From: a virus
Taxonomy: Duplodnaviria; Caudoviricetes
DNA length: 51,669 bases
IMG/VR virus record: IMGVR_UViG_3300011270_000003
Coordinates: 1-51,669 of that record
Direction: 5' to 3' (one strand)
Shown here: in pieces, positions 3,481 through 51,669 of the stretch
Numbering within the stretch: position 1 is the stretch's first letter
Layout: each line of letters starts with the position of its first letter
Program-made: the position numbers and the translations under genes
Notes under the pieces: model-generated
The model's database searches: none
What the model saw: only the letters and a program-made list of their open reading frames with translations
What the model was told of the DNA's origin: nothing

Positions 3481-3576
3481 GGATAAATGATCTCTTTCGT
3501 GATAAGCGATCCTATGTGAAAGATGTACGGAAGGGTCTGGGTACAGAGGCAAGCATCTGCCAGGTAGTAACGTACT

Positions 3577-4487
3577 AGTCATTCGGACAGCATAGTCGGA
3601 GCGCTAAGCAGGCCCGTGTATCCTTACATGGAGGCTAAAACATAAGGAAGTAGGACTGAACCGATATCAAATCTAGTCCTCCGGTGACAGACGTGATCAG
3701 TCAGCTTAGTCTCTACAACCAGGATATCAGGATCAGAGTCCAATCTGATGAGACGGCAAAGGATTAGTGGAATATCCGTAGTCATCTATCTAATAGATAG
3801 AGAAACAAAAGCAGGACTAATATTAGTATCCTAAGGAGATGTGTAACTCCTTACAGTAACTCAGACTTAATTGGTATAAATAGAAGGTTCAAATCCTTCC
3901 TGAGTGAAAGTACGATCTAGTATTAGGACAAGTAGGATCTAAACCTTGATATGGCCACGGTGGCAGACAAACAACGGTACGCTCATGAGGACACCAGATA
4001 GGTGTCGAACTCGGAATTGGTTTAGAGCGAGTACCATGTGATCGGATGCGCTGGATTGCAACTCCAGAGATGTTGTAAGACCGAACAACCTGTGGTCTGT
4101 ATTCAACAAGGATGTTGATCTGAAAAGACTGAGCAATAGCATCATTAACTAAGTAGACACTCTTCTGAAGAGTTGATCTTAGACTGTTTGACTAGCGCTT
4201 CCATTAGGCGTGAAAATGTCATCTGGAATGATGTCTCAGTATCGAAGACTCTACAGAGATCGCCGATCTGTGATGAACAGATGAATGATCTAAAGAGATG
4301 CAGTGGTTAAGTACACTGGTATAACCGGGGACTGGGAAACGAACCAGCCGGAACGCCCGTTATAAAACTACTCAACGGGAGTAAACCTGGAACAAACACA
4401 TCAGACCTCTCGATGTAGAGAAATAAGAACCAAGGTCTCGACGGTTGTCTACCGTAGGGAGACTTCTAGAGTCTCATGTCCGAGACT
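3577..4487 (+). ncRNA. Candidate giant structured ncRNA (GOLLD/ROOL-like size class)
   Basis: About 1.1 kb with no credible gene, more than 15 hairpins, closing helix AGTC-at-TCGGACA (3577-3589) with TGTCCGA-GACT (4477-4487), tRNA-like subdomain. Strand inferred from flanking genes and T-loop orientation. Confidence 0.75.
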
Positions 4488-4602
4488 TTAACTAATGGAG
4501 GTGCAATCGTGTTACATGATGTGCACTCTGGACAAATCAAACAACCGCCTTAAGTTTGGGGGCACATATGCCCCCGTTAGTCCATTTATAATGGAGGTTA
4601 CA

Positions 4603-4860
4603 ATGTATCATGGATACCCTCCTTTCGGACCTCAATCCAACCCTCTGGCAGATTTAAGAGCTGCCATAGACTACTACAAAGGTTTAGAAAAGGAGTTGAA
4701 GGATCAGAATAAGAAACCAGAACCACCTAAGAAGAAGGATAAGTGGTTGGAAGTAGCACAGACATTTGTAACAATGGCTGCATTCGCTCCAATCGTAGGT
4801 TTTGGACAACTAATATTATACTTACAACTTGCACATCAAGTAAAAGGAATGATACCATAA
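4603..4860 (+). CDS. Small membrane protein
   Basis: GGAGGT RBS before the ATG at 4603; C-terminal hydrophobic helix. Confidence 0.75.
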   Translation: MYHGYPPFGPQSNPLADLRAAIDYYKGLEKELKDQNKKPEPPKKKDKWLEVAQTFVTMAAFAPIVGFGQLILYLQLAHQVKGMIP

Positions 4861-5714
4861 AAACAATCTATACTCTGGTTACCGATATACAGTATTTATT
4901 GACGACCAGAGGCTGGTTCACAGATGAGCTAGCCCTGGATTTATCTAATAACATAACCAAAAGATTACAATCTCAATATAACGATATCGATAAACCATCT
5001 TTAAGAATGTCTAAACTAGGACCTGTCTGTCCTAAAGCTTTATGGCATTCGATACATACACCAGAGTTAGCCGAGCCTCTACCACCATGGGCAGAGTTCA
5101 AATACTCCTTTGGACATATAATAGAGGCTCAGGCTATATCTCTTGCCAAAGCTTCAGGACATACAGTTACGGGAGAGCAGGATGAACTTGTTCTCGATGA
5201 TATCCGCGGTCATAGAGACTGCATTATCGACGGCTACATTGTTGATGTTAAATCTTCCTCTAGCCGTGGGATGGACAAATTCAAAAGGAAATATCAAACA
5301 ACGCTTGACGATTGGGGCTATCTATCTCAACTTGACGCTTATATGGGCGCTAGTGCTAACGACGATCTGGTATTGGTAAAAGACACAGCATATATATTAG
5401 CTATTGACAAACAATTAGGACACATGGTATTATATGAACATTCATTTAGAAAAGAGCATATCCATCAAAGGATTAGATCGTGCAAAGAAACAATTGGACT
5501 TAGCAGAGCTCCGTCTTGTACATGTGGAATATTACCTGAGGGAAAGTCAGGCAATTATAAACTCGATGTTAAAGCTAGCTACAGTCAATACAAACACTGT
5601 TGTTTCCCAAGACTACGAACTTTCCTCTACTCAGATGGACCAAGATACCTTAGTCACGTAGAAAGGAAACCTGATGTCATCGAGATTAACAGAACTGGAC
5701 AAGTCATACACTGA
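4857..5714 (+). CDS. Cas4-like PD-(D/E)xK exonuclease (probable ATA start)
   Basis: LRMSKLG.VCPKALW, FGHIIE, GHRDCIIDGYIVDVKS and GYLSQLDAY motifs. Confidence 0.8.
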   Translation: MKTIYTLVTDIQYLLTTRGWFTDELALDLSNNITKRLQSQYNDIDKPSLRMSKLGPVCPKALWHSIHTPELAEPLPPWAEFKYSFGHIIEAQAISLAKASGHTVTGEQDELVLDDIRGHRDCIIDGYIVDVKSSSSRGMDKFKRKYQTTLDDWGYLSQLDAYMGASANDDLVLVKDTAYILAIDKQLGHMVLYEHSFRKEHIHQRIRSCKETIGLSRAPSCTCGILPEGKSGNYKLDVKASYSQYKHCCFPRLRTFLYSDGPRYLSHVERKPDVIEINRTGQVIH

Positions 5715-5862
5715 CTTCTTGCTTCAACCTAAGTCTACACAGAGCGATCCTCTTGTGGACAGAGATTGTGTTTTATTAGATGGTTCTTGTGACTGTCCTA
5801 AACCTATTAGAGATTGTAAATATTTACAAGATATAGAAGAGAACGAGGAAGAAGATATCTAA
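5674..5862 (+). CDS. Small Cys-containing hypothetical protein
   Basis: AAGGA RBS; four Cys and an acidic tail. Confidence 0.55.
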   Translation: MSSRLTELDKSYTDFLLQPKSTQSDPLVDRDCVLLDGSCDCPKPIRDCKYLQDIEENEEEDI

Positions 5863-6202
5863 GAAAACGAGAAATAAATCTGAAGAGAATATAGCCAATC
5901 AGTTACGTCGAGCTAGGATTACATTTGAATACGAAACTGAAAAGATTCCTTATGTCTTAGCTCGACACTATCTTATAGACTTTAAACTATATACCCCTCT
6001 GGGAAAGATATATATTGAATATAAAGGCTATCTAAGACCAGAGGATAAATGCAAATTAATAGCAGTTAAGAAACAGCATCCTAATATGGATCTAAGAATA
6101 GTCTTTTATGAATATAAAGAGAAACAAGTTAAGTGGGCTATGAAGAATGGATTTAGATATGCCATCGGGAATATTCCAGAGGAGTGGTTACTAGGCTTAT
6201 GA
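5855..6202 (+). CDS. T7 endonuclease I-like Holliday junction resolvase (ATA start; missed by the ORF track)
   Basis: Manual translation: RNKSEENIANQL..FEYETEKIPY..YLIDF..IEYKGYLRPEDKCKLIAVKKQHPNMDLRIVF..WAMKNGF..IPEEWL. Confidence 0.9.
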   Translation: MSKKTRNKSEENIANQLRRARITFEYETEKIPYVLARHYLIDFKLYTPLGKIYIEYKGYLRPEDKCKLIAVKKQHPNMDLRIVFYEYKEKQVKWAMKNGFRYAIGNIPEEWLLGL

Positions 6203-6375
6203 GGTATGTTATGGCTATAATAGATATTGTAGATAGATTCCTTCATAGACTTATATGGTTTAGTTTAGGTATTATCACAGCATTAATATATGTTAATAGT
6301 ATGTCTACTTGTTTAGGTAGAGCCTGTGTCTTAATGTACTCAACTCCATTTTACATTCATAAGTTATTACGATGA
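6199..6375 (+). CDS. Small membrane protein
   Basis: ATGA coupling; hydrophobic segment. Confidence 0.55.
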   Translation: MRYVMAIIDIVDRFLHRLIWFSLGIITALIYVNSMSTCLGRACVLMYSTPFYIHKLLR

Positions 6376-6506: not shown

Positions 6507-6798
6507 AGAAGATGTCATTGCGGTTAAATACGAAGATTCTAGAAAAGAATATCCTAAACAATTAGAGTTAAAGACGACTGTAGGACATCTTAAAGATCTA
6601 TTACTTCAAGAGATGATGCTGAATAACTGGATTACAGATGATGAAGAAGTAGTTCATTTTGTATTTGGAAAGATAGCTCCTATGTGGGAGAATGCTAAAT
6701 CTCTTAATGGATATTTAAACTTGGAGATACCTTTTACAATTACATTAAACAAACAAGAACAAAAGAAATCAGAGGTTAAGTTTAGAACATATGAGTAG
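6487..6798 (+). CDS. Hypothetical protein
   Basis: AGGAG RBS before the ATG at 6487. Confidence 0.7.
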   Translation: MTKPLSREDVIAVKYEDSRKEYPKQLELKTTVGHLKDLLLQEMMLNNWITDDEEVVHFVFGKIAPMWENAKSLNGYLNLEIPFTITLNKQEQKKSEVKFRTYE

Positions 6799-7024
6799 AA
6801 ACTATGCAAAAGAAACAAGATGGGAAGATAGTCCAGCACAAGTTAGACGCCGTGAAGCTCGTAATCAAGCTAGAACGCATGCTGAACGACTTGGAAGAGT
6901 TACAAAAGGCGATCATAGAGAACTGGACCATATTGGGTTCCACCGCACGGGATCGCTTGATGATGTACCGACCAAGGTGGTTTCTCGTCACGCCAATAGA
7001 ATACGGCAACCACCTAGACATTAA
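6791..7024 (+). CDS. Small HNH-like protein (degenerate)
   Basis: RNYAKE..RREARNQAR..GRVTKGDHRELDH..VVSRHANR resembles the short HNH-type proteins of T7-supergroup phages. Confidence 0.65.
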   Translation: MSRNYAKETRWEDSPAQVRRREARNQARTHAERLGRVTKGDHRELDHIGFHRTGSLDDVPTKVVSRHANRIRQPPRH

Positions 7025-7076
7025 ATTAGTTCCTTTAAATAGCACTCGCACAAGTGCTCGTGCACAGGAGACTACC

Positions 7077-7586
7077 ATGTGGTACAATAACGAAGAAGAT
7101 GTCACTGCTCAGAGCAAGAACTACTTCCTCCGAGAGATCAACACTATCGTTACTAAGAAGCAGGAAGAAGCTGCTAAGCGTTTTGGACTGAACGATCCTA
7201 AGCCTAAGACTCTGGCTGAAGCTGTAGAATGGTTGAAGACTGGTAAGTTTCGTATTGGAGATGAAGATCACGACCTGAATGATTTTTATTACCACAGTGC
7301 TTACCAGTTAACTGACTGGTTACATTGGATCGATCCTACTGTAGTCCGAGATGAGGATGGTTACAATCAGTACGTAGCTAAACTTAGTGAAGAGACTAAG
7401 AGGATTGAACGTATCGTTGTAGCCTGTCGTTTAGACGCAGAAGGTTATGATTACGACAGAGATAACGGTGCTGATTACAATGTCATCATCGATGCAATCG
7501 AAGAGTTAGAGAAGTGGGACTGGACTCCTCCGGCTAAGGTGATTCCTCTGGTGGCCACATCTGATGATATTGCAGAAGCAGCTTAA
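7077..7586 (+). CDS. Acidic hypothetical protein, last gene of the + arm
   Basis: CAGGAG RBS before the ATG at 7077; followed by a terminator. Confidence 0.8.
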   Translation: MWYNNEEDVTAQSKNYFLREINTIVTKKQEEAAKRFGLNDPKPKTLAEAVEWLKTGKFRIGDEDHDLNDFYYHSAYQLTDWLHWIDPTVVRDEDGYNQYVAKLSEETKRIERIVVACRLDAEGYDYDRDNGADYNVIIDAIEELEKWDWTPPAKVIPLVATSDDIAEAA

Positions 7587-7755: not shown

Positions 7756-9879
7756 TTATTTCAATTTACTTAACCTCTCTGCAGCTTCTCTAGCATTCTT
7801 AGTCATAGTTCTCATTTCATTTGGCCGTAACTGACTTTTATAATTTCGAACTGTTCCTACGCCTAATCCAAAATAATCTGCAATCTCTTCTACACTTTTT
7901 CCTGAGTCTAACATTTTAGTAAATTCTCCTTGACGACTACCAATAGAAGCCATAGCAGGAGAAGTATCTATTTTATTACCTTTCTCATCAAAGATAAGTT
8001 GATAAGATCTAGGTATATCTTCTGTCTTTGTAGCAAGAGATACACGTCTTTCTAACTCAGACATACCTGCTCTCTTCTGAGTATTTCTAGCTTCTACTTC
8101 CGATGCTAATTGTCTATATATTCTTTCTTTAGGAGATTCTGTAACTCCTTCCTTACGCATTCTAGCTGCGAATGCTTTTACAAATGATGCAGGAGCATCA
8201 GAAGGAACATTGAAAGCAAACCCTTCTTTGTTCTGAACCCAGTGTTGTAATTCATGAAGAATAGCGTCATGAACTTCTGTAGCATCTATAAGATTTTTAT
8301 TTAATTTAATAGTATTTTGACCACTCATAAATCTAGCTTCTGTAGTATCACTTACAAGATTTCTTTCAACTTTTATATTTTTAGCTTCTGGATATACTTT
8401 ATAAAATTCAGGATGATCTAATACATCGCCTAGTTTGGCTATATTCCAACTACTCTTATTTTTAAAAGCATTTAAATTTACAGAAGAAGGTAAATCACTA
8501 ACTTCTTGTCTAAGCATTCCTTCAGCACCATGTTCTACTCCAGTCAAAACTTTAACTTCTCCAGGAGATAAACCTTGTTTAAGAAGACCCTGAGCATATA
8601 ACTTCTTACCTAGAGAAGGAGCTACAAACATTCCTAAAGTATTAGGAATTGGACGAGCGGGAGTATTAAGCATTGAAGTAAAATCAAATAACTTAGGAGC
8701 TATTGTTTCAATCTCTTCATCTGTCAAAGCACCTTCATGACCTCTATCTGAGATCATTTTAAGAGCTCCCATTAAATTTTGAGCACCACGTAATAACGGT
8801 TCACCGATTGTTCTTACCGGAGATGTTCCAATAGCTTCACCAGCTCTTGTTGCCATTCCTTCCTGTCTACTACCACGATAATTACTTATATCTTTTCCAG
8901 TTCTTTCTGTATAACTCAGATGTCCTGTTACACCTGGTTTAACAGCTTCACGTTGACGTCTAGCTGCTTGTTCAAATGGATCAGACATAATAGTACTATC
9001 AGGTTCCATAGTCATCTTACGTACAGAACCTGGTTGGTCTGTATCTTCAAACAACTTAGATAGATCTAGACTAGGATTATCTTGTCCAGTCTTCTCCCAA
9101 CCTTCTAAAGAACTCTCGACCATATGGTGGGTAACTATACCTAACTTCTTATCTTTGTTAGCTAAGATCGCTTCTCTGATACCTTCGAATGCTCTGTCTT
9201 TAAATTGATTATATGATTCTCCACCAGGCACTACTTCATCTGGTTTCTTTTCTGCATAGTTCTGCAGAATATCATTATTACCTTCACAAGGTTTACCTTC
9301 GAAATTACCTACATTCCAAGTCTTTAATTTATCACTTATCGTGATAGGTATTCCAAGCTCTTTACCGATGATCTGGGATGTCTCTTTAGCTCTAGCTAGG
9401 GGAGATGATACCAGAGCCTCTAAACCTTTACCACGGAGCTCCTCAGCAGCTTCTAGGGCATGTTTACGGCCTTCGGCGCTTAACTTAACATCATCATTAG
9501 TTCCACGAATCTTGTCTTCTTCATTCTCTTCCGTAGTACCATGACGTATAATATGGATATCTTTAGGTTCTTCTAAATGTGTTTTATAACCTAGAACATT
9601 ACCTTTTTGTTTATCTGTAGCTCTTTGTAAAACATCAGACATCCCTTCTGCATAAAAAGGATATTCATTACGTCTATCTTCAACTTCACCCTGAAGATTA
9701 AAATCCAGACTTTCTTTATTTAATTTACCAGGTAAACCTGCATAATAATCATTTGGACTAATTTGGTAGACATCTGTCTTAGGATCATAATTAGGACTTT
9801 GAATTAATTTATGACTGTCTGCGACAGCTTCATATTCATTATCAAACCAACGACCATCACCGTAAGAAATACCCATCAT
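7756..9879 (-). CDS. Polyvalent protein: histidine phosphatase + LPD23-like zincin + C-terminal HTH
   Basis: IIRHG..SSPLARAKET..GGES..VTHH; LGDVLDHPEFYKVYP..ILHELQHWVQNKEGF..EVEARNTQKR; GKSVEEIADYFGLGVGTVRNY. Confidence 0.8.
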   Translation of the reverse strand: MMGISYGDGRWFDNEYEAVADSHKLIQSPNYDPKTDVYQISPNDYYAGLPGKLNKESLDFNLQGEVEDRRNEYPFYAEGMSDVLQRATDKQKGNVLGYKTHLEEPKDIHIIRHGTTEENEEDKIRGTNDDVKLSAEGRKHALEAAEELRGKGLEALVSSPLARAKETSQIIGKELGIPITISDKLKTWNVGNFEGKPCEGNNDILQNYAEKKPDEVVPGGESYNQFKDRAFEGIREAILANKDKKLGIVTHHMVESSLEGWEKTGQDNPSLDLSKLFEDTDQPGSVRKMTMEPDSTIMSDPFEQAARRQREAVKPGVTGHLSYTERTGKDISNYRGSRQEGMATRAGEAIGTSPVRTIGEPLLRGAQNLMGALKMISDRGHEGALTDEEIETIAPKLFDFTSMLNTPARPIPNTLGMFVAPSLGKKLYAQGLLKQGLSPGEVKVLTGVEHGAEGMLRQEVSDLPSSVNLNAFKNKSSWNIAKLGDVLDHPEFYKVYPEAKNIKVERNLVSDTTEARFMSGQNTIKLNKNLIDATEVHDAILHELQHWVQNKEGFAFNVPSDAPASFVKAFAARMRKEGVTESPKERIYRQLASEVEARNTQKRAGMSELERRVSLATKTEDIPRSYQLIFDEKGNKIDTSPAMASIGSRQGEFTKMLDSGKSVEEIADYFGLGVGTVRNYKSQLRPNEMRTMTKNAREAAERLSKLK

Positions 9880-11993
9880 TCAGGCTTTCTAGTCTTATAC
9901 TTTTCTTTGACTGCTGCTTTAAAAGCATCTTCATTCTGTTTCTGTTTAGCTATGGAATCATACATCTGTTGAGGTAAACCCTTCATAACTTCCGGATTAA
10001 GAGCTCCAAACTTCTGTAATTCACCTAACATATATGAGTTAATATCTGTACCTTCAGTCTCAGCTATAGATTTAATATTATGGAGACCATAGTTAATTCG
10101 GTTAACGTTCTTTCTAATACTATCGAATGCACTTACATTAGGAAAGTCAGCTACAAGCCTATGATTGACGGTATCCCAGCCAATAGATCCTTGTCCTGTC
10201 CCGCCTATACCTCCTCGTTCAAAATGAGGAGTTACTCCTAATGCTGTTTGAGCAGCAGATAACTGTCTAAGTTCCCCTGCAAATATCTCTTGACCGAAAG
10301 ATTGTGTAGCCCAAGATCTATAGTTCTGCCACAAAGGATTATTAACACTACTTCCAGACAATCTCCATATCTCTTTAGCCATATCTGTAGAAGTCATTCT
10401 ACCGAAGACAGATAAATTAGATCCATTCTCTTTCTCAAACTTAGATACTAAACCTAAGTTTTGAGAACTATAAGCATCTCTAATAAGATTTACTTTAACA
10501 TTATCGGGAGTCTTAGGATCAGCAATACGTTCTACATTATGAATCATCTCATCTATAGTCTTAGCTTTAGTAGCTGCAGGAATATCTTTAGCAGCATTAA
10601 CCTGATCTACACCAACTTTCATATTAGTGGTAGAAGTTCCAGTCATCTGTTTACCTGCAAAATCTTCTAACCAAGTCTTAACTCCAGGAGAACCGCCTAA
10701 GTTCTTATTTATAAAATATTGAGATACTTCTTTAGCGAAAGGATCTCCACCTACAGCTACAAGAGCAGACTGAGTTCTGAAGAATCCTCCCATAGTAGTA
10801 TCATTCATAAGACTAAGTTTAGACGTAGATGTAATAGCATTATAAGCATTAGTAGCTGAATGTATTTGACCATATTGACCATTAGACAATAGATCAGATA
10901 TACGATCAAAGTATTCTAGTTTAGAATTAACTCTCTTTCCTGCATCGTCTGGACCTAATATAGTGAATAAAGATTTACCATTGATACCTAATTTAGGATC
11001 ATTGATATCTCTTTCCATAGATGTCTTAGCAGCATTCTTAAGTAACTGTATCTTTTGTAAAGCTACTTGAGCTTGTTCAGGAGTAAGAGTTGCATTCTGA
11101 AGAGACTTCAGAACTGTGTCTGAAGCTTCAGGCTGAGAAATAGAATGTGCATAAGTATCTGATGCTTTATGTAGAAGTTTATCAGCTAAATCAGGAGCAG
11201 TTTCTTTCTCATCTTTTATAGTCCATTCTTTACGCTGGTTCTGTTGTTGGTCTACTGTGTAATTATACTTATAAGCATTTAATCTAGCTGCTGACACTCT
11301 ACCTTCATCATCAGATATCTCACCTCTGAGTAATCTATTCTTAAGAAAAGCTGCCTGTTCATTTCCAGATCTAATTTCTTGTTCTAAAGTAGAAAGTAAT
11401 TCATCATGTTGTTTCTGTTTACCTGCGTTAGCAGCATTTAGATCTCCTATAAGAGAGTTAGCATAAGCATTGGCTACATTCTTACCAGTAATACGTTCAG
11501 ACTCTCTATCTATATAATCTCTATATTGAGGCCACTGTTGTCTAATATCTTTAAGAACTTTAAACTGTCTACCTAACTTATCTGATTCAGTTATTTTTCC
11601 ATTGTTTCTTACATCTTGAAACATCTGAATAGCATTAATACCTTGATGAATATCAGAAGGAACTGCAGCACTACCTTGTGCTGTTAAAACATCTGTAGAT
11701 TGATTACCTTGAGTGTTCTGAGCTACTTGAGTACCACCTTCAATAGCCGCCTTAGTAGATTCTAAACCAGAGATATTTTCTTCGTCGATAGAAGTCATCT
11801 GTTTAGTTATGTCATCTTTAATATACCCCTTAATACCAGTATCAGCTAACTTACCAGTATCTTCTAAAGCAGTTCCTATTGTTTTGAAAAGAGTACCTCC
11901 AGACTTATCAGGAGTAGGTTCTTGAGCAGGTCTAGATAAATGAAGATAAAAAGGATCTGAAACCTGAGGTACTTGTGGATTAACAGGAGCCAT
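9876..11993 (-). CDS. Putative internal virion (ejection) protein
   Basis: 705 aa, helical-looking, in the run of genes after tail tubular protein B. Confidence 0.65.
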   Translation of the reverse strand: MAPVNPQVPQVSDPFYLHLSRPAQEPTPDKSGGTLFKTIGTALEDTGKLADTGIKGYIKDDITKQMTSIDEENISGLESTKAAIEGGTQVAQNTQGNQSTDVLTAQGSAAVPSDIHQGINAIQMFQDVRNNGKITESDKLGRQFKVLKDIRQQWPQYRDYIDRESERITGKNVANAYANSLIGDLNAANAGKQKQHDELLSTLEQEIRSGNEQAAFLKNRLLRGEISDDEGRVSAARLNAYKYNYTVDQQQNQRKEWTIKDEKETAPDLADKLLHKASDTYAHSISQPEASDTVLKSLQNATLTPEQAQVALQKIQLLKNAAKTSMERDINDPKLGINGKSLFTILGPDDAGKRVNSKLEYFDRISDLLSNGQYGQIHSATNAYNAITSTSKLSLMNDTTMGGFFRTQSALVAVGGDPFAKEVSQYFINKNLGGSPGVKTWLEDFAGKQMTGTSTTNMKVGVDQVNAAKDIPAATKAKTIDEMIHNVERIADPKTPDNVKVNLIRDAYSSQNLGLVSKFEKENGSNLSVFGRMTSTDMAKEIWRLSGSSVNNPLWQNYRSWATQSFGQEIFAGELRQLSAAQTALGVTPHFERGGIGGTGQGSIGWDTVNHRLVADFPNVSAFDSIRKNVNRINYGLHNIKSIAETEGTDINSYMLGELQKFGALNPEVMKGLPQQMYDSIAKQKQNEDAFKAAVKEKYKTRKPE

Positions 11994-27349: not shown

Positions 27350-29157
27350 TGAGGTTGTCCTTGAGGTTGAACTTGAGGTGGATTCTGTCCCATATCGAAG
27401 TCGTTACCTAAACCTGTTGCAGTCATGGTAGACTGATGCATCTGCTCTTCTAGAGCTTGAGCTTGCTTCTGACCATCTGCTTGTTCAGCGAGAGCTACGT
27501 AGGGGGTTACTACTTCGAAGTCTTCTAAATTAAATGTCTTTTCTAATATCTTAGCAAGTTTAACTCCTGAGAAGTGAGGTTGAACTGTAGGCCATAGATT
27601 GGATTGAGTGAGATTAGTAAGATTCTGAATAAGCTCTGCTTGTTCTGCGAAGTGTCTCGCAGCTACAGGTTTAATTCGTCCTATGCCTGTTATATCGTCG
27701 ACTGTAAGGGTCTGGAAGGTAGCTAATTTAAACTCGTCATCAAATACCTTAATCGTCGTAGCACCTACCATATTGCGTCTAGCGAGCTCTAAGAGGGCAT
27801 TTAAAAGAGGTTCTTCCTCTTGTTCCTCGAACTGTTTAATCTTGTTTTGATAGATACGTGCAGAAGCATTCTCTAAACGTTGTACTTCGTATTTAGTTTT
27901 TTCTCCTGGACTTCGGAACCCCATTGCTTCTCGTGGAGCTCCTGCCATCTGTTCCATGAGCTGTTCTAGACGTTCTATCTTCATGTCGCTTTGCATTACG
28001 TTGACTTCGGGTACTAATAGCTCTACGTCTCCTTCATCAGATACAAATATCTTTTCACCTGGTTGCCATGTAAAATCTTCTACGAATCCTTTAACCTTCT
28101 GTACCGGGAATGTAACTAAATCCCAGACATCTGCTCCCATGTTTTCAATATGATCCATTCGATACTGCATACCGACTAGATTATCTAATGGTCCCATACC
28201 CCATAGGTTATCTTGCTTCTTACGCCACGGAACATGAAATATAGGAGCATAACCGAAGTATGATGGACCTGGTTCGTTCGATATTAACTTATGGCGATCT
28301 ATTACTGTAATTACCCTATTCTTTTCGAATATGTCATTGATGTAATCATAATAATCGCCGTAGAAAGTTAATATCTCTACGAAATCTTGTAATAAATAAG
28401 CTCTGAATGAAGTAAATCCATCCATTGCATAGAGATGATCTCTCTGGATCCAATCTCCTTGGAACGTTCTAGCATGGAATCTAATGTTCTTAAGATAATC
28501 AAATAACTCCATGTAACGCTGTCTATTTTCATCAGTAGATACCCTCTGGAGATAATCTCTTAATTCTCCCATAGATATGATACTACGAACAAGCTTAGGA
28601 GATTGATAGAAGTTCTCTGCTGTAGGATTGAAGACAATATCAAGAGGAGAGATCCGTCTGACTGCTGGACCTACGTATCCTACTTGTGTCTTATCTGGTA
28701 GTTGTACTCTTTGGTCTACCCATTCGACAGTACCAAAGCAATTACCAAAATCTATATAATCCATGATAATCTTATCCATCTCATGCTTAAAAGATGGTTG
28801 AGAGACTACCCAAGCCATGTAGTTGGTTATAGCATCTCGTTTATCTCTGGAGTTAGAATCTCGTTCATTTGCTTCCCACGTTAACCATTTACGTTGGGGA
28901 AAGAGGGTCGCTGTATAATTGCTGTACAAGTTATCTCTAATCTGACATAACTTCGGTACAGTCGTTTTGTTCTTCCACGGTAGTTGATTATTAGTGGTTT
29001 GGGTTGTATCCGTGGCATAAACATATCGACGAACCTCTTCCCAGTCATTCTTCTTTACCTGACGTAATGTCTCCCATTGTACCCACTTCTCAGTGATACG
29101 GGTAGCTAACATATCTGGTTGTATTACATTATGAAGTTCTAGTACTTTACCAGTCAA
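27346..29157 (-). CDS. Portal protein
   Basis: 603 aa directly after TerL; RISPLDIVFNP and WGMGPL motifs; Gln-rich tail. Confidence 0.9.
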   Translation of the reverse strand: MTGKVLELHNVIQPDMLATRITEKWVQWETLRQVKKNDWEEVRRYVYATDTTQTTNNQLPWKNKTTVPKLCQIRDNLYSNYTATLFPQRKWLTWEANERDSNSRDKRDAITNYMAWVVSQPSFKHEMDKIIMDYIDFGNCFGTVEWVDQRVQLPDKTQVGYVGPAVRRISPLDIVFNPTAENFYQSPKLVRSIISMGELRDYLQRVSTDENRQRYMELFDYLKNIRFHARTFQGDWIQRDHLYAMDGFTSFRAYLLQDFVEILTFYGDYYDYINDIFEKNRVITVIDRHKLISNEPGPSYFGYAPIFHVPWRKKQDNLWGMGPLDNLVGMQYRMDHIENMGADVWDLVTFPVQKVKGFVEDFTWQPGEKIFVSDEGDVELLVPEVNVMQSDMKIERLEQLMEQMAGAPREAMGFRSPGEKTKYEVQRLENASARIYQNKIKQFEEQEEEPLLNALLELARRNMVGATTIKVFDDEFKLATFQTLTVDDITGIGRIKPVAARHFAEQAELIQNLTNLTQSNLWPTVQPHFSGVKLAKILEKTFNLEDFEVVTPYVALAEQADGQKQAQALEEQMHQSTMTATGLGNDFDMGQNPPQVQPQGQPQ

Positions 29158-30740
29158 GTCACACCACCGAACTTACTATGAAATTGAAACACTATTTGAG
29201 CATCTTTCTTCATTCTAAATATATCTAAGGGAACTACAGCAAAGTCTACGGCTGCAGCTAAGGCATCTTTTATGTCATCGTGAGCAGGATTAGTAAATAT
29301 AAGCTCTTCTTCTAATGTTTGACAATTACCTCCGGCATAATGCCACATTTGAAGATTAGAATACTTAGGCTCTAAAGTAGCTTGTATTCTTTCTTCTTTA
29401 GATCCTTGCCATCGGCTAGGACGATATTCTTCTACAGAGAGAGACAAACCAAAAGGTCTAATATAATTGTCTTTAAGATCTCTTACTATGACTTGTTGAG
29501 CGACAGAGACTTCTGCTCTTAGTTTATGAAAAGCCCACTTCTCATGTAGTTTTAATATTCTGTTAAAGTAATCAGATATCTTATCTGTCTTAAATCTGTC
29601 TATATCTAGGATGTAGTAGTTGCCTTTACCATCTACTCCTACGACTACTATCGCTGAGTGATCCGCCCTTTTCCCAGACGAATACGCGAAATCGACGGCT
29701 GCGACGACGTTGAGACGTTCGTTCTTAAAGAACCATCTTCCATCTTTCTGTCCGAGGAAGGCTGGGTTGTAGTACTGGAACAAATCTCGTTTAATTGCGG
29801 ACGAATCGATGTCGTGCGGATCGTTATAGTATTGGGCCCTAAAGTGTACCTTGTTGATGTACTGTGCTCTTTTTGTGGCCAGGATTTTACTGTCGAAGCC
29901 AAACCAGCGTCCGTCTGTTCTTTGCTGTCTAGGCCATAGGAATTCGCCAGTGCCGTCGCCCACTGATTCAACCTGTCGTTCAAATACCTCGAATAAAGGT
30001 GTTGCGTTGGAAACATTGCCCAATTCATCGTAATCTTCAATCTCCATATCTTGTAGACTAGAATATAAATCTTTAGGATGGTATCTAGTCCCGACCACCC
30101 ATTCTCTTGCATTTACTGTTTCAATAGATGATAACAGTGAATATTGACTTTGTACTTTCTCTCGGCCATCTTCTAAGTAAGCGTTAGACTCTACAACCAC
30201 GTCATCAAGAGCAGCAATGTCGCAATGTAAACCGACAATGTTACTAGTAAGACCTGCAGTAAAGATCGAAGGATCTCTGACCGATTCGGCTCTTCTAAGA
30301 GGATGGTCAATAGAGATTTCTCTTTCTGTCCATTTCTCACGTTTAGCTTCCTCTTTCTCGACCATATCTGGCCAATAGATTCTATACGTATCGTTAGTTA
30401 GAATATCTTTAATAAACTTAAGTTGTTTAATAGCTAAGTTAGAAGTACTAGATATTAATAGAATTCTTAGAGTAGGGTCTTTAGTTAATTCCCAGACTAA
30501 TCTATAAGCTAAAAGAGTAGACTTCATATGATCTCTAGGTAAGAGTAGAAGCTGATGAGACTTAGATTCTTGTTTACACCACCAACTAATTACTTCTCTA
30601 TGAACGTTACCTAAGACTCTCTTAGGATGGACTAACTTAATAAACTCTTCTAAAGAAGACTCAGCAAGGAACTTACGATCTGCTCTTACGTCAGATAACT
30701 TAACCTTAGATTTATTTAGACTACCTTTAGGTCTACCCAT
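29154..30740 (-). CDS. terL: Terminase large subunit
   Basis: LLLLPRDHMKST (Walker A variant), GLHCDIAALDDVV (Walker B), VGTRYH, AVDFA and HDDIKDAL nuclease motifs. Confidence 0.93.
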   Translation of the reverse strand: MGRPKGSLNKSKVKLSDVRADRKFLAESSLEEFIKLVHPKRVLGNVHREVISWWCKQESKSHQLLLLPRDHMKSTLLAYRLVWELTKDPTLRILLISSTSNLAIKQLKFIKDILTNDTYRIYWPDMVEKEEAKREKWTEREISIDHPLRRAESVRDPSIFTAGLTSNIVGLHCDIAALDDVVVESNAYLEDGREKVQSQYSLLSSIETVNAREWVVGTRYHPKDLYSSLQDMEIEDYDELGNVSNATPLFEVFERQVESVGDGTGEFLWPRQQRTDGRWFGFDSKILATKRAQYINKVHFRAQYYNDPHDIDSSAIKRDLFQYYNPAFLGQKDGRWFFKNERLNVVAAVDFAYSSGKRADHSAIVVVGVDGKGNYYILDIDRFKTDKISDYFNRILKLHEKWAFHKLRAEVSVAQQVIVRDLKDNYIRPFGLSLSVEEYRPSRWQGSKEERIQATLEPKYSNLQMWHYAGGNCQTLEEELIFTNPAHDDIKDALAAAVDFAVVPLDIFRMKKDAQIVFQFHSKFGGVT

Positions 30741-44422: not shown

Positions 44423-44499
44423 GCCCATATAGGCCAATCGGTAGAGTCAGGGGACTTAAAATCCCCACAGTGTCAGTTCGAGTCTGACTATGGGCACCA
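44423..44499 (+). tRNA. tRNA-Leu(UAA) with a short variable loop and encoded CCA
   Basis: Acceptor GCCCATA/TATGGGC, anticodon arm GGGGA-CTTAAAA-TCCCC, T arm GTCAG-TTCGAGT-CTGAC, ACCA end. Confidence 0.92.
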
Positions 44500-46733: not shown

Positions 46734-47453
46734 ATGTTAGAAATGTTCAAGCCGAAACAGACAACTATTCAAACATTGGACATGAGATCTCCTGCTGAGA
46801 TTAACTGGCATAAGTTAGGAGCTAAGCCATCATCTGCATGGTGGAAACTTGCAGAAAGAGAATGGCGAATTGAAGGCATGTATTGTACTCCTGACATCAG
46901 TACAATTGAAGATAACATGTATAATCTTCTATTCGTATGTGATGCTTTAATACAAGGAGAAAAGAAATTTAAACAGATAGAAGACAACTGCATCTTAGTA
47001 GCTAATTGTTTTACAGTTAACAACTTCGAATTCTGGTCTAAGGATTTAGGGACTGAAACGTTCCCCATTCCTTTAGAAACAGACAAGAAAGCTGTATTCG
47101 AAGAATGGGCTGATCTTAATACTAGTAGGTTAGCTCAACCTGCTAAGATCAAAGGACAATTATTAGCAGTCAGAGGAAATACTTTAATTTCTCTTGACAA
47201 AGACTATTCAAATACTATAATATATGAACGTAAGAAAGTACATATACACATACCTAATAGACAAATACATTATCTGGACAATGGTCACACAGATATTAAG
47301 ATGTGTGACATGGGTATGTGGGTATGGATGTATGTTGGAATACCTGCCTATTGGTCTGATATAATTGACATTGGATTTAGGTGTAAACCTGTCACGATTT
47401 ATAAGTCAAAAGCAATGATGAAGGAGCCATATTATTACTTCCCGACTAGTTGA
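46734..47453 (+). CDS. Gamma-glutamylcyclotransferase-like protein (degenerate)
   Basis: LLFVCDALIQG (compare LFVYGTLxxG), IKGQLLAV, LISLD, YERKKV, WMYV. Confidence 0.6.
   Translation: MLEMFKPKQTTIQTLDMRSPAEINWHKLGAKPSSAWWKLAEREWRIEGMYCTPDISTIEDNMYNLLFVCDALIQGEKKFKQIEDNCILVANCFTVNNFEFWSKDLGTETFPIPLETDKKAVFEEWADLNTSRLAQPAKIKGQLLAVRGNTLISLDKDYSNTIIYERKKVHIHIPNRQIHYLDNGHTDIKMCDMGMWVWMYVGIPAYWSDIIDIGFRCKPVTIYKSKAMMKEPYYYFPTS
47194..47221 (+). promoter_or_regulatory. Internal sigma70 promoter upstream of primase
   Basis: Perfect TTGACA-16 nt-TATAAT inside a CDS. Confidence 0.75.
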
Positions 47454-49005
47454 AGTTCACATTCCATGTGAAGTCTGTGGTAGTTCTGATGCTAAGTCTA
47501 CCTTTGATGATGGACATGGGTTTTGTTTTTCATGTAATCATTATTTTCCGCCATTAACCTCTCCTTCAACCAAGGAGTTTACCTATGAATATTGTCCATG
47601 GCGTGGCGTCAATGCGGAAACTTTCCGCTTCTATGACGTCAAAACTAAGATCGATTCCGACGGTAAGCCGGTCTCGATTGGCTATCGCTATCCGAACGGT
47701 AGCTACAAAGTTAGACAGCTTGGCAGCAAAGATTTCTCCAGCCTAGGAGAGATTAGCAAAGCAGGTCTATTCGGATCAGATAAGTTCAACGCTGGTCAAC
47801 ATAAATATGTGACCATCACCGAAGGAGAACAAGATGCGTGTTCCCTTTACCAAGTACTACATCAACCTGTGGTTTCTATCCAGTCTGCTGTTACTAGCGT
47901 ACGTGATTGCACAGCATGTAGATCCTGGCTTAGTAGCTTCGATCGAATCTACCTCTGTTTCGACAGCGATGCAGTGGGGCGAGAAGCTACAGCAGCAGTT
48001 TCTAAGCTTTTCGACTATGGCAAAGTCTTTGATGTAAAACTAACATCAAGGAAAGATGCCAATGAATACCTTCAGAATGGTGAAGGTGAAGTACTCAGGA
48101 ACACATGGTTTAATTCCCGCAAATACTTGCCCGAGACCATAGTCTCTTCCTTCGACGACTTCAAAACTATTCTGAAAGGTAAAGTACGACACGGTATCCC
48201 CTATCCGTTCCCTACCTTAACCGAAAAGACGTATGGAATACGAACAGGGGAAATCGTTCTAATCACTGCTCCTGAAGGAGTAGGTAAGACTGAATTAATG
48301 TACAACCTCGAACATCATTTGTTAAAGGTAACAGATGATAACATAGGATGTATTCTCCATGAAGAAAGCCCTAGAAGGCACCTCCAAGCTATTGCTGGAC
48401 TTGAGCTCCAAAGACCCGCGCACCTTCCCGACAGCGGTCTCGAAGAAGATGAAATCTTTTCTGCTGTCTCCAAGGTTATTCGCATGGATGAGCGGTTGTA
48501 CCTTCATTCTAGCTTTGGGGGCGACTCTGCAGAGACACTCTGCGACACTATTAGGTTTCTCGTTTCTGCCTGTGGCTGTCGTTTTATTCTTTTCGGTAAC
48601 ATTTGCATGGCCATTCCTCTCTTGGCGGGAGAGAATGAAAGACAAGCTCTCGACCAAATCTCTACCAGATTAGAGATGATGGTCAAGGAATTAGATTTTG
48701 GATTAATAGTAGTAAGCCATGTCAATGATTTTGGACAAACAAGAAGCAGTAGGGCCATTGGGAAAGTATCCGATATTAGGATCGATCTTTCTCGCGATGT
48801 TACACAAGGAAGCAGAGAAACTTACATCACAGTCTCTAAAAATAGGTACTGCGGTAAAACAGGATCAGCAGGCATACTTACGTTTGATCCTGGAACATAT
48901 ACTCTATCAGAATTAAAAGCTGATAACGATAATGAAGTTCAGACGTCATCACAACAACAAAGGTCTTCGCCAGATAAGACGTGGGAAGACATACGAGCAG
49001 CTTAA
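47434..49005 (+). CDS. T7 gp4-like primase-helicase (ATT start)
   Basis: Zinc ribbon HIPCEVCGSSDA..GFCFSC, TOPRIM TEGEQDA..CFDSD..KDANEYL, Walker A APEGVGKT, VVSH and KNRYCG; frame open from 47422. Confidence 0.93.
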   Translation: MTSRLVEVHIPCEVCGSSDAKSTFDDGHGFCFSCNHYFPPLTSPSTKEFTYEYCPWRGVNAETFRFYDVKTKIDSDGKPVSIGYRYPNGSYKVRQLGSKDFSSLGEISKAGLFGSDKFNAGQHKYVTITEGEQDACSLYQVLHQPVVSIQSAVTSVRDCTACRSWLSSFDRIYLCFDSDAVGREATAAVSKLFDYGKVFDVKLTSRKDANEYLQNGEGEVLRNTWFNSRKYLPETIVSSFDDFKTILKGKVRHGIPYPFPTLTEKTYGIRTGEIVLITAPEGVGKTELMYNLEHHLLKVTDDNIGCILHEESPRRHLQAIAGLELQRPAHLPDSGLEEDEIFSAVSKVIRMDERLYLHSSFGGDSAETLCDTIRFLVSACGCRFILFGNICMAIPLLAGENERQALDQISTRLEMMVKELDFGLIVVSHVNDFGQTRSSRAIGKVSDIRIDLSRDVTQGSRETYITVSKNRYCGKTGSAGILTFDPGTYTLSELKADNDNEVQTSSQQQRSSPDKTWEDIRAA

Positions 49006-50640: not shown

Positions 50641-51669
50641 TATTGAAGCAGATAAATTAGAAAATCCTACTAAGATATGGTGTGTCGTTCTAAAAGACAT
50701 AGCTACGGGGGAATATTATGTATTTAGAAATCTCCACGAAGATCAAACAGAAGTGGAGAAGTTTAAAGATTTGGTTAAAAAGTGTAAAAGATTGGTCGGT
50801 CACAACATTCTTGGTTATGATTACCCTGTCTTGTGTAATCTTATTCAGTTTTATGATTGCATTAATGTTACCGATATTATTGATACCTTTATTATTTCTA
50901 AGTTATGTAACTATTCGCGCAAGGGACATGGAATAGAAGATTACGGTCTTGAATTTAACTTACCTAAAGGAGAATTCAATGATTGGTCTAGACTTACTGA
51001 AGAAATGGTTACGTATTGTATTAGAGACGTCGATATCTGTGAGCGTATTTACCTTAGCTATCTTAGTGACATCGATAATCCTAAGTATAGGAATGCTATT
51101 ACTTGTGAACACAAGTTCCAAATCATTGCTAATTCTCTTCACGATAATGGGTTCTATTTTGATATTAAAAAGTGTAATAAACTACTTGAGAAAGTAACTT
51201 TAGAATTAAAGAATTTAGATGAAGATATACTTAAATCCTTTCCTCCTCATCTCACTTTAATTAGAGAGATTAATCCAGAGTTGACCAAACATGGGACTCT
51301 TCATAGAAAAGACTTCCGCTGGGTACAGAGTAACGATCTTTCGGAATACAATGGGGGATCTTTTTGTAGATGTATCTACCAAGAGTTCAATCCATCCTCA
51401 CATAGACAAATTGTGGATGTTCTTTCTAAGGCTGGCTGGAGACCAAGCGACAAAACCAAGACACACGTTGAAGCCAACAGACAAGGAATAGTTAGAGAAG
51501 ATCTTAGTAAATATGGGTGGAAGATCAATGAAGCGAATATCTCTTCACTTCCCAGTAGTGCTCCACAATCAGCTAGAACTCTGGCCAAGAGGATACTATT
51601 CGAAGCTAGACGTAGGACGCTCACCGAGTGGATTAAACTTTATGATCCCAATACCGGAAGAATTCACGG
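50624..51669 (+). CDS. polA: Family A DNA polymerase, N-terminal 3'-5' exonuclease half (wraps to 1093)
   Basis: Manual translation: IIDIEAD (Exo I), GHNILGYD (Exo II), YCIRDV (Exo III), FNPSSHRQI; missed by the ORF track because it runs off the window end. Confidence 0.93.
   Translation, partial: MQLIIDIEADKLENPTKIWCVVLKDIATGEYYVFRNLHEDQTEVEKFKDLVKKCKRLVGHNILGYDYPVLCNLIQFYDCINVTDIIDTFIISKLCNYSRKGHGIEDYGLEFNLPKGEFNDWSRLTEEMVTYCIRDVDICERIYLSYLSDIDNPKYRNAITCEHKFQIIANSLHDNGFYFDIKKCNKLLEKVTLELKNLDEDILKSFPPHLTLIREINPELTKHGTLHRKDFRWVQSNDLSEYNGGSFCRCIYQEFNPSSHRQIVDVLSKAGWRPSDKTKTHVEANRQGIVREDLSKYGWKINEANISSLPSSAPQSARTLAKRILFEARRRTLTEWIKLYDPNTGRIH

Follow-up and report, generated by a model that had tools for sequence, protein, structure and literature searches.

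At the locus considered here, a gene for an endonuclease I of the T7 gene 3 type lies on the plus strand behind a small cysteine-rich open reading frame (ORF), and its own frame appears to be opened by an ATA codon. Coordinates are those of the window, by which is meant the whole 51,669-nucleotide stretch of DNA that was analysed.

5674..5862, plus strand: Cys-rich 62-codon ORF with an ATG start; its TAA (5860-5862) lies within endonuclease I codons 2-3 (ATATCTAA)
5834..5836, plus strand: upstream in-frame TAG, which closes the endonuclease I frame on its 5' side
5845..5849, plus strand: Shine-Dalgarno-like GAGGA, 5-6 nt before the ATA (GAGG at 5845-5848, with a 6-nt spacer)
5855..5857, plus strand: ATA, putative endonuclease I initiation codon, judged from its position, the lack of an alternative and the related phage sequence L004
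5855..6202, plus strand: gene for endonuclease I, a Holliday-junction resolvase of the T7 gene 3 type; 115 codons and a TGA stop

The frame is open from stop to stop over 121 codons (5837-6202, plus strand). After the TAG it reads AAG AGA ACG AGG AAG AAG and then ATA TCT AAG AAA ACG AGA AAT AAA TCT GAA GAG, and every detail reported for this site in an earlier note on the same DNA, namely the TAG at 5834, the six codons, the ATA at 5855 and the GAGG 6 nt upstream, holds in the sequence. A canonical codon (ATG, GTG or TTG) first appears in the frame at codon 84, an ATG at nt 6086 that lies 69% of the way along and after all catalytic motifs, in agreement with the earlier placing of the first ATG about two-thirds into the nuclease. 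Apart from the ATA at 5855, no AUH or CUG codon occurs between the TAG at 5834 and the catalytic Glu. Initiation further along the frame, at ATA 5891 or ATT 5918, was rejected, since it would delete the aligned catalytic Glu.

Judged by its sequence, the product is a typical endonuclease I of the T7 family. It matches Pfam PF05367 (Phage_endo_I) over residues 8-118 of the frame (E 3.5e-17, 62.9 bits against a cut-off of 29.1), so that homology begins one codon past the ATA, and it also matches PHROG 945 (E 8.7e-27) and the T7 endonuclease I structures 1M0D, 1FZR and 2PFJ (E 2.9e-13 for 1M0D). In the 1M0D alignment the catalytic Glu, Asp and Glu-x-Lys motifs are all paired: E10, nine residues past the ATA, the D of 'IDF', and 'IEYKG' align with the E, PDF and VETKG of the T7 enzyme. 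The T7 catalytic residues are Glu20, Asp55, Glu65 and Lys67, with Glu20 corresponding to residue 10 here. As in T7-like phages, the gene lies in a replication and recombination module beside an exonuclease and a primase/helicase. The two genes differ at their 5' ends, where T7 gene 3 has an ATG behind GGGAGG, whereas the window gene has ATA and an N-terminal tail shorter by about 10 residues.

The Shine-Dalgarno (SD) duplex, computed against the anti-SD motif, has a free energy of -5.9 kcal/mol and ranks 20th among the 67 gene starts of the window (median -4.3). The SD is thus moderate, above the median and in the upper third, and the GAGG sits in a purine-rich, Glu-coding stretch and may be a by-product of coding. 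The start region forms no stable RNA structure (z -0.02). Downstream, the 3' neighbour begins with an ATGA overlap at 6199-6202, placing endonuclease I in a tight operon. A promoter directly upstream was rejected on a consensus scan that returned 7 sites against a shuffled mean of 11.9, none of them adjoining the start; a match to 11 of 12 promoter-consensus positions lies at 5404-5433, within the Cas4-like gene. The 62-codon Cys-rich ORF at 5674-5862 has no Pfam or PHROG match and is conserved in two related loci, L001 and L003.

The window itself is a complete, circularly permuted soil phage genome of ~51.5 kb with a GC content of 38.8%. The 123 nt at its two ends (1-123 and 51547-51669) are identical repeats, and the DNA polymerase gene continues across them, from which it follows that the record represents a circular or permuted assembly and that the true genome ends are not at these positions. 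Early and replication genes form a plus-strand block that runs from 40.9 kb through the end to 7.6 kb, while terminase, portal, capsid, tail and lysis genes form a minus-strand block at 7.7-40.4 kb. Megablast found no cultured phage close to the window, and among 1462 matching phage records the best identity to its endonuclease I was 43%, all cultured phages falling below 60%. Contigs from four soil-metagenome runs, drawn from three studies and perhaps in part the origin of this DNA, show 0 differences from the window over 4700-6300, and the ATA is therefore no one-off assembly error. A look for expression data gave no RNA run among those listed as carrying this sequence.

Endonuclease I start codons in related phages

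The relatives of the gene comprised 8 loci from IMG/VR and 72 from metagenome contigs, together with those of four related complete genomes. Of the 85 loci examined, 80 had a complete 5' end and 67 were distinct, 59 of these being at least 50% identical to the window protein. Canonical starts are found 19-33 codons before the conserved Phe of FEYETE in 56 of the 59, with a mode of 23, and the window ATA lies at 23. Under a tally rule that favours ATG where several starts are available, 10 sequences have an ATG available, 19 have GTG as the sole choice, 27 have TTG as the sole choice, and the remaining 3 have none of these codons. The survey of orthologous starts, which the earlier note had proposed with uniform ATG as the outcome that would speak against its reading, gave anything but uniform ATG. 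The sequences that have no canonical start are the window (ATA), L004 (ATA) and L036 (CTG at position 23).

The position and type of the start vary even among closely related proteins. The five closest endonuclease I sequences (at least 90% identity) display four solutions: ATG at -21, GTG at -21, ATG at -27, and ATA at -23 twice. The second ATA belongs to L004 (the same sequence as L023), whose endonuclease I is 90% identical to that of the window, shares the ATA TCT AA and has no canonical start. The ORF upstream in L004 is unrelated to that of the window (best local score 22), and ATATCTAA is still present. Anchored on the ATA, the nucleotide identity between the two is 14, 5 and 15 of 30 in successive upstream blocks and 26, 27 and 28 of 30 in the downstream blocks. 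This jump in identity indicates that the module common to both phages begins at the ATA and brings along its own stop for any upstream gene. L003 has this ATA as well, but there it codes for an internal Ile, five codons past an ATG.

Across all 10 pairs of the five close sequences dN/dS is 0.045-0.127, the value for the window and L004 being 0.127 at a dS of 0.34, and these low ratios place endonuclease I under purifying selection. On a gene tree from which the start region was left out, the distinction between ATG and not-ATG needs at least seven changes. The ATA-only state occurs in only two distinct sequences (window and L004/L023) and, taken with L036, accounts for a minimum of two changes on the tree. 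Endonuclease I of T7, CRP-6 and WH11-B starts at ATG (three of three readable annotated starts among four cultured-phage records); given these ATG starts in cultured phages, the bias toward weak starts would belong to the soil clade and not to the endonuclease I family as a whole.

Taken alone, an ATA behind a GAGG in a purine-rich stretch is unremarkable. What lifts it beyond chance is the match to the start positions of relatives, the second phage with ATA as its only choice and the purifying selection on the ORF. The features expected of a natural AUH start are found here, with no canonical start before the first essential residue, an orthologous position and an SD at working distance, and AUA at 5855 is, on this sequence evidence, very probably the true endonuclease I start.

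Companion genes and the clade-wide background

Two further genes for DNA-processing enzymes in the window lack a canonical start at their conserved N-terminus, as the earlier note had stated in grouping them with endonuclease I.

4857..5714, plus strand: Cas4-domain (PD-(D/E)XK) exonuclease gene, ATA start at 4857-4859; PHROG 1990, E 1.3e-20
47434..49005, plus strand: primase/helicase gene, start ATT at 47434 (another ATT at 47431); PHROG 239, E 8e-113

The ATA of the Cas4-like gene overlaps the stop of the upstream ORF (ATAA) and is preceded by AAGGA at 4844-4848. It lies 19 codons before a conserved Trp, at the exact site where relatives have TTG, ATG or GTG. No canonical start is present in 5 of 34 distinct Cas4-like sequences, of which the window, L004 and G008 have ATA while L036 and G006 have CTG, and the gene tree requires at least five changes between canonical starts and none.

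The primase frame opens past a TGA (47419-21) and reads AGG AGC CAT ATT ATT, with AAGGAG at 47421-47426. Its zinc ribbon starts at frame residue 13, and no canonical codon occurs before codon 130. In the alignment the ATG of L104 and L112 (M-T-S-R/K) falls on the second ATT, and the ATT ATT is also found in three further close records. Independent lineages have ATA (L101, in G006), ATT (L115), or ATT or a distant GTG (L113); the ATA of L101 is preceded by TAG TGA and CAAGGAAG. In all, 7 of 34 distinct primase sequences have no canonical start, and the tree needs at least four changes.

By SD strength the primase and Cas4-like starts rank 7th and 21st among the 67 gene starts. The three AUH starts of the window all overlap the 3' end of an upstream ORF, and RNA structure that would hide or expose them was not detected at any of the three (z -0.02, +0.46 and +0.89). 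The minimum number of switches between canonical and no canonical start on the gene trees is 2 for endonuclease I, 5 for the Cas4-like nuclease and 4 for primase, for a total of at least 11. The earlier description of a non-AUG feature shared by DNA-processing genes is borne out by these repeated, independent losses of canonical starts in relatives.

The weight of these cases depends on how other genes of the clade begin. Starts called in the window (n=67) comprise 52 ATG, 7 GTG, 5 TTG, 2 ATA and 1 ATT, consistent with the earlier remark that most neighbours use ATG. For a wider background, nine related complete genomes (the window, G001-G003 and G006-G010) supplied 295 ORFs that are conserved in at least two other genomes, with shadow frames removed. 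A canonical first start fits the conserved N-terminus in 264 of these 295 (ATG 201, TTG 36, GTG 27). Use of ATG in endonuclease I (10 of 59) differs from this background (201 of 264) with a Fisher p of 2e-17, a value that overstates the difference because the rows are related.

A refined screen of the nine genomes, blind to non-canonical starts wherever the N-terminus is not conserved, flagged 46 of the 295 ORFs, and 12 of them were judged by eye to be clearly non-canonical; in the other 34, conservation begins deep within the protein or an ATG lies just past the margin. Ten of the 12 clear cases fall in the endonuclease I, Cas4-like and primase families, which make up 26 of the 295 conserved ORFs. 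The remaining two appear to be ATC starts. One, in G006, belongs to a protein of unknown family (orthologue of window 9879-11993, 705 aa) and aligns with the ATG or GTG of the others behind GAGGAGG; the 705-aa protein family has no PHROG or Pfam match. The other, in G007, belongs to the terminase large subunit (orthologue of window 29157-30740), whose first 81 codons include no ATG, GTG or TTG. AUH starts are thus not confined to DNA enzymes. Weak starts in the three genes recur across the clade and are no accident of the window genome.

The metagenome contig L036 carries CTG at the orthologous start of both endonuclease I (-23) and the Cas4-like gene (-19) with no canonical start nearby, and an ATG 42 codons upstream of the anchor offers an alternative start for its endonuclease I.

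Probable weak initiation, proposed dosage limitation and competing explanations

T7 endonuclease I is toxic when over-expressed. The reading that we regard as probable is that the window gene has a real but weak AUA start, which limits a potentially toxic nuclease. Initiator tRNA would read the AUA with a third-position mismatch, and the GAGGA 5-6 nt upstream would bring ribosomes to it. Re-initiation would probably add ribosomes, as the upstream ORF, whichever it is, terminates at the TAA inside endonuclease I codons 2-3 (ATA TCT AAG). The yield would be low, from a few percent up to ~30% of AUG by published values from other bacteria, and scarcity of a potentially toxic nuclease would be the outcome. 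The AUA may be seen as the far end of a clade-wide continuum of weak starts, toward which the primase and Cas4-like genes lean alike. As to the parts of this reading, selection of the weak endonuclease I start to limit dosage seems somewhat favoured, and the case for a contribution from translational coupling is evenly balanced.

Published yields for such starts cover a wide range. In Escherichia coli, AUA, AUC, AUU and CUG initiate at 1-2% of AUG (bioRxiv 10.1101/063800). A study of Staphylococcus aureus gives ~10-30% of AUG for the natural AUA starts of infC, ccpN and citZ, which were mapped by Ribo-RET, and reports that the ccpN yield rises from ~10% to ~30% of AUG in rich medium (PMC13009471). 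Another source gives 7.5% for HB-3 hydrolase with AUA and reports a loss of ~85% for an AUG-to-AUA mutant of T4 rIIB (PMC5499595).

Several known systems resemble the endonuclease I start in part. The E. coli genes pcnB and infC (AUU) likewise have a near-cognate AUH behind an SD instead of AUG; the AUU of pcnB limits expression, and low yield is its accepted function (cited in PMC3592434). These are single cellular genes that have been proven experimentally, whereas the window start belongs to a phage nuclease, is AUA and is known here from its sequence, and any link to IF3 is hypothetical. The natural AUH starts of S. aureus infC, ccpN and citZ (AUA) and cvfC1 (AUU), for which the authors propose dosage tuning (PMC13009471), have strong extended SDs, while endonuclease I has a moderate SD and a start that overlaps the end of an upstream ORF. 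That overlap recalls AUGA-type coupling: stop/start overlaps occur at the Cas4-like gene (ATAA), at endonuclease I (ATATCTAA; TAA at 5860-5862, ATA at 5855-5857) and at the gene after it (ATGA), although AUGA-type coupling uses an AUG for restart and the restart codon of endonuclease I would be AUA. In E. coli reporters with stop/start overlaps, re-initiation contributes about as much as de novo initiation (PMC3592434).

Other explanations differ in how much of this evidence they account for. The absence of a canonical start, on account of which standard gene callers would pass over endonuclease I, might indicate a dead or untranslated gene or a sequencing error that turned ATG into ATA. This is very improbable in view of the intact frame with all catalytic motifs, dN/dS of 0.05-0.13, and the presence of the same ATA in four run assemblies, L003 and L004; the dN/dS values and the identical run assemblies led to its rejection. 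Fusion to the upstream 62-codon ORF by a +1 frameshift, taking place in the overlap at 5837-5862, is barely credible. The endonuclease I frame is indeed +1 relative to that ORF, and the overlap ends in ATC TAA with GAGG upstream, which we take to be loosely like the prfB arrangement. An Ile tRNA on AUC would presumably be unable to re-pair on UCU, however, the upstream ORF is not conserved in L004 while the same ATA is kept, and 56 of 59 relatives have a canonical start of their own at the matching place, so that a prfB-type frameshift was set aside. A phage tRNA that reads AUA as a start was likewise rejected, the sole tRNA of the window having the anticodon UAA and a paired 1:72 end (G-C), which is not initiator-like.

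In an unlikely alternative, AUA is the start but is simply unselected, either because the host tolerates AUH and CUG or because coupling suffices, the starts of tightly packed genes then being free to drift. The rapid turnover of start type and position among the five closest endonuclease I sequences fits such drift, overlap with an upstream ORF at all three AUH starts of the window suits drift with coupling, and the ATC starts of the unknown-family protein in G006 and the terminase in G007 fit a permissive host as well as they fit gene-specific selection. Translation from AUA at about the level of AUG, reported for an optimised context in a rich-medium extract (PMC5499595), would also suit permissive reading. 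Drift alone does not predict the concentration of 10 of the 12 clear cases in three families, or the availability of ATG in 10 of 59 endonuclease I sequences against 201 of 264 background ORFs.

The earlier note had gone further and proposed a coordinated, IF3-sensitive timing switch, perhaps relieved by a phage factor. In its general form, in which AUH starts respond to IF3 or to the physiological state of the host and so time or gate the enzymes of replication and recombination, this is distinctly unlikely. It is favoured by the repeated and independent absence of canonical starts in the same three genes and by precedents in other bacteria: IF3 discriminates against AUU, by which means infC is autoregulated (PMC5499595 and PMC3592434), nutrient limitation and ppGpp depress non-AUG mRNAs (PMC5499595), and rich medium raises the ccpN yield. 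Against it, PMC5499595 reports that excess IF3 in vitro lowers AUU translation by more than 60% but AUA translation by only 20-25%. No translation factor or other translation-related match was found among 71 ORFs searched with PHROGs and the 41 of those searched with Pfam, the sole new match being a histidine phosphatase domain, and no gene family tracks AUH use among the nine genomes, which is a weak test. The DNA polymerase gene and a UDG-like gene start at ATG, and close relatives trade ATG, GTG, TTG and AUH freely in the three genes, the mixture of ATG, GTG and TTG showing no visible compensation. A related proposal, quite unlikely in our estimate, is that near-cognate starts (AUA, AUU, AUC and CUG) on the primase, Cas4-like and endonuclease I genes are a selected and repeatedly re-invented device that ties enzyme supply to host start-codon fidelity, as set by the IF3:ribosome ratio, ppGpp and nutrients. 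If this were true, DNA processing would be gated by host physiology or infection stage, beyond mere low dosage, and a switch of the kind proposed earlier would give a phage a new means of sensing the physiological state of its host. The simpler reading, which explains the data and is the best supported, is that dosage is limited along a continuum of weak starts. Nothing so far supports an IF3 timing switch, a relieving phage factor or a connection to the adjoining RNA-like region.

AUH-limited expression is itself known; what is new is this instance and its clade-level recurrence in three linked phage genes. No papers reporting AUA or AUU starts for phage endonuclease I, Cas4-like or primase genes were found in a search that covered few subscription journals. 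Gene callers restricted to ATG, GTG and TTG would miss endonuclease I, of which just 38 codons remain from the first ATG, without the catalytic Glu, Asp and Glu-x-Lys motifs, and the same callers would clip the primase zinc ribbon and the start of its TOPRIM domain. Phages of the clade would then seem to have absent or broken key DNA enzymes. The starts found across the clade form a natural series for studying start-codon choice against enzyme dosage in phages.

Other features of the genome

Just upstream of the operon lies a kilobase that is free of ORFs (3481-4494, plus strand), presumably the 'giant RNA' of the earlier note. Its GC content is 44%, against 38.8% for the genome, and its predicted fold has a z of -3.96 (20 shuffles). 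Identity is 94% to its counterpart in G001 and 75% to that in G002, blastn did not find it in six more distant genomes, and no Rfam family matches it, whether at the gathering threshold or with E relaxed to 1. A T-loop-like GGTTCAAATCC hairpin is located within it at 3886-3896. By its predicted fold the region is a candidate large structured RNA, and no link between it and the AUH starts was seen. On the minus strand, a 100-codon open frame at 3889-4191 inside the region, without any ATG, GTG or TTG, is probably a by-product of regional composition.

The sole tRNA of the window (44423-44499, plus strand) is 77 nt long and has the anticodon UAA, which would make it a Leu tRNA, together with a variable region of 5 nt, although a long variable arm is usual for Leu tRNAs of bacteria.

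Downstream of endonuclease I, a 91-codon ORF (6749-7024, plus strand, with an ATG at 6791) is matched in each of the eight other genomes and has no Pfam match. It overlaps, in a different frame, the first third of a 263-codon ORF (6795-7586, plus strand) that has matches in only four other genomes, and the true start of the longer ORF is probably further downstream, at an ATG near 7077.

The histidine phosphatase domain (His_Phos_1) occupies residues 108-254 (E 3e-32) of a 707-aa protein encoded at 7759-9879 on the minus strand. This gene sits at the end of the minus-strand structural block, where a histidine phosphatase is unusual cargo.
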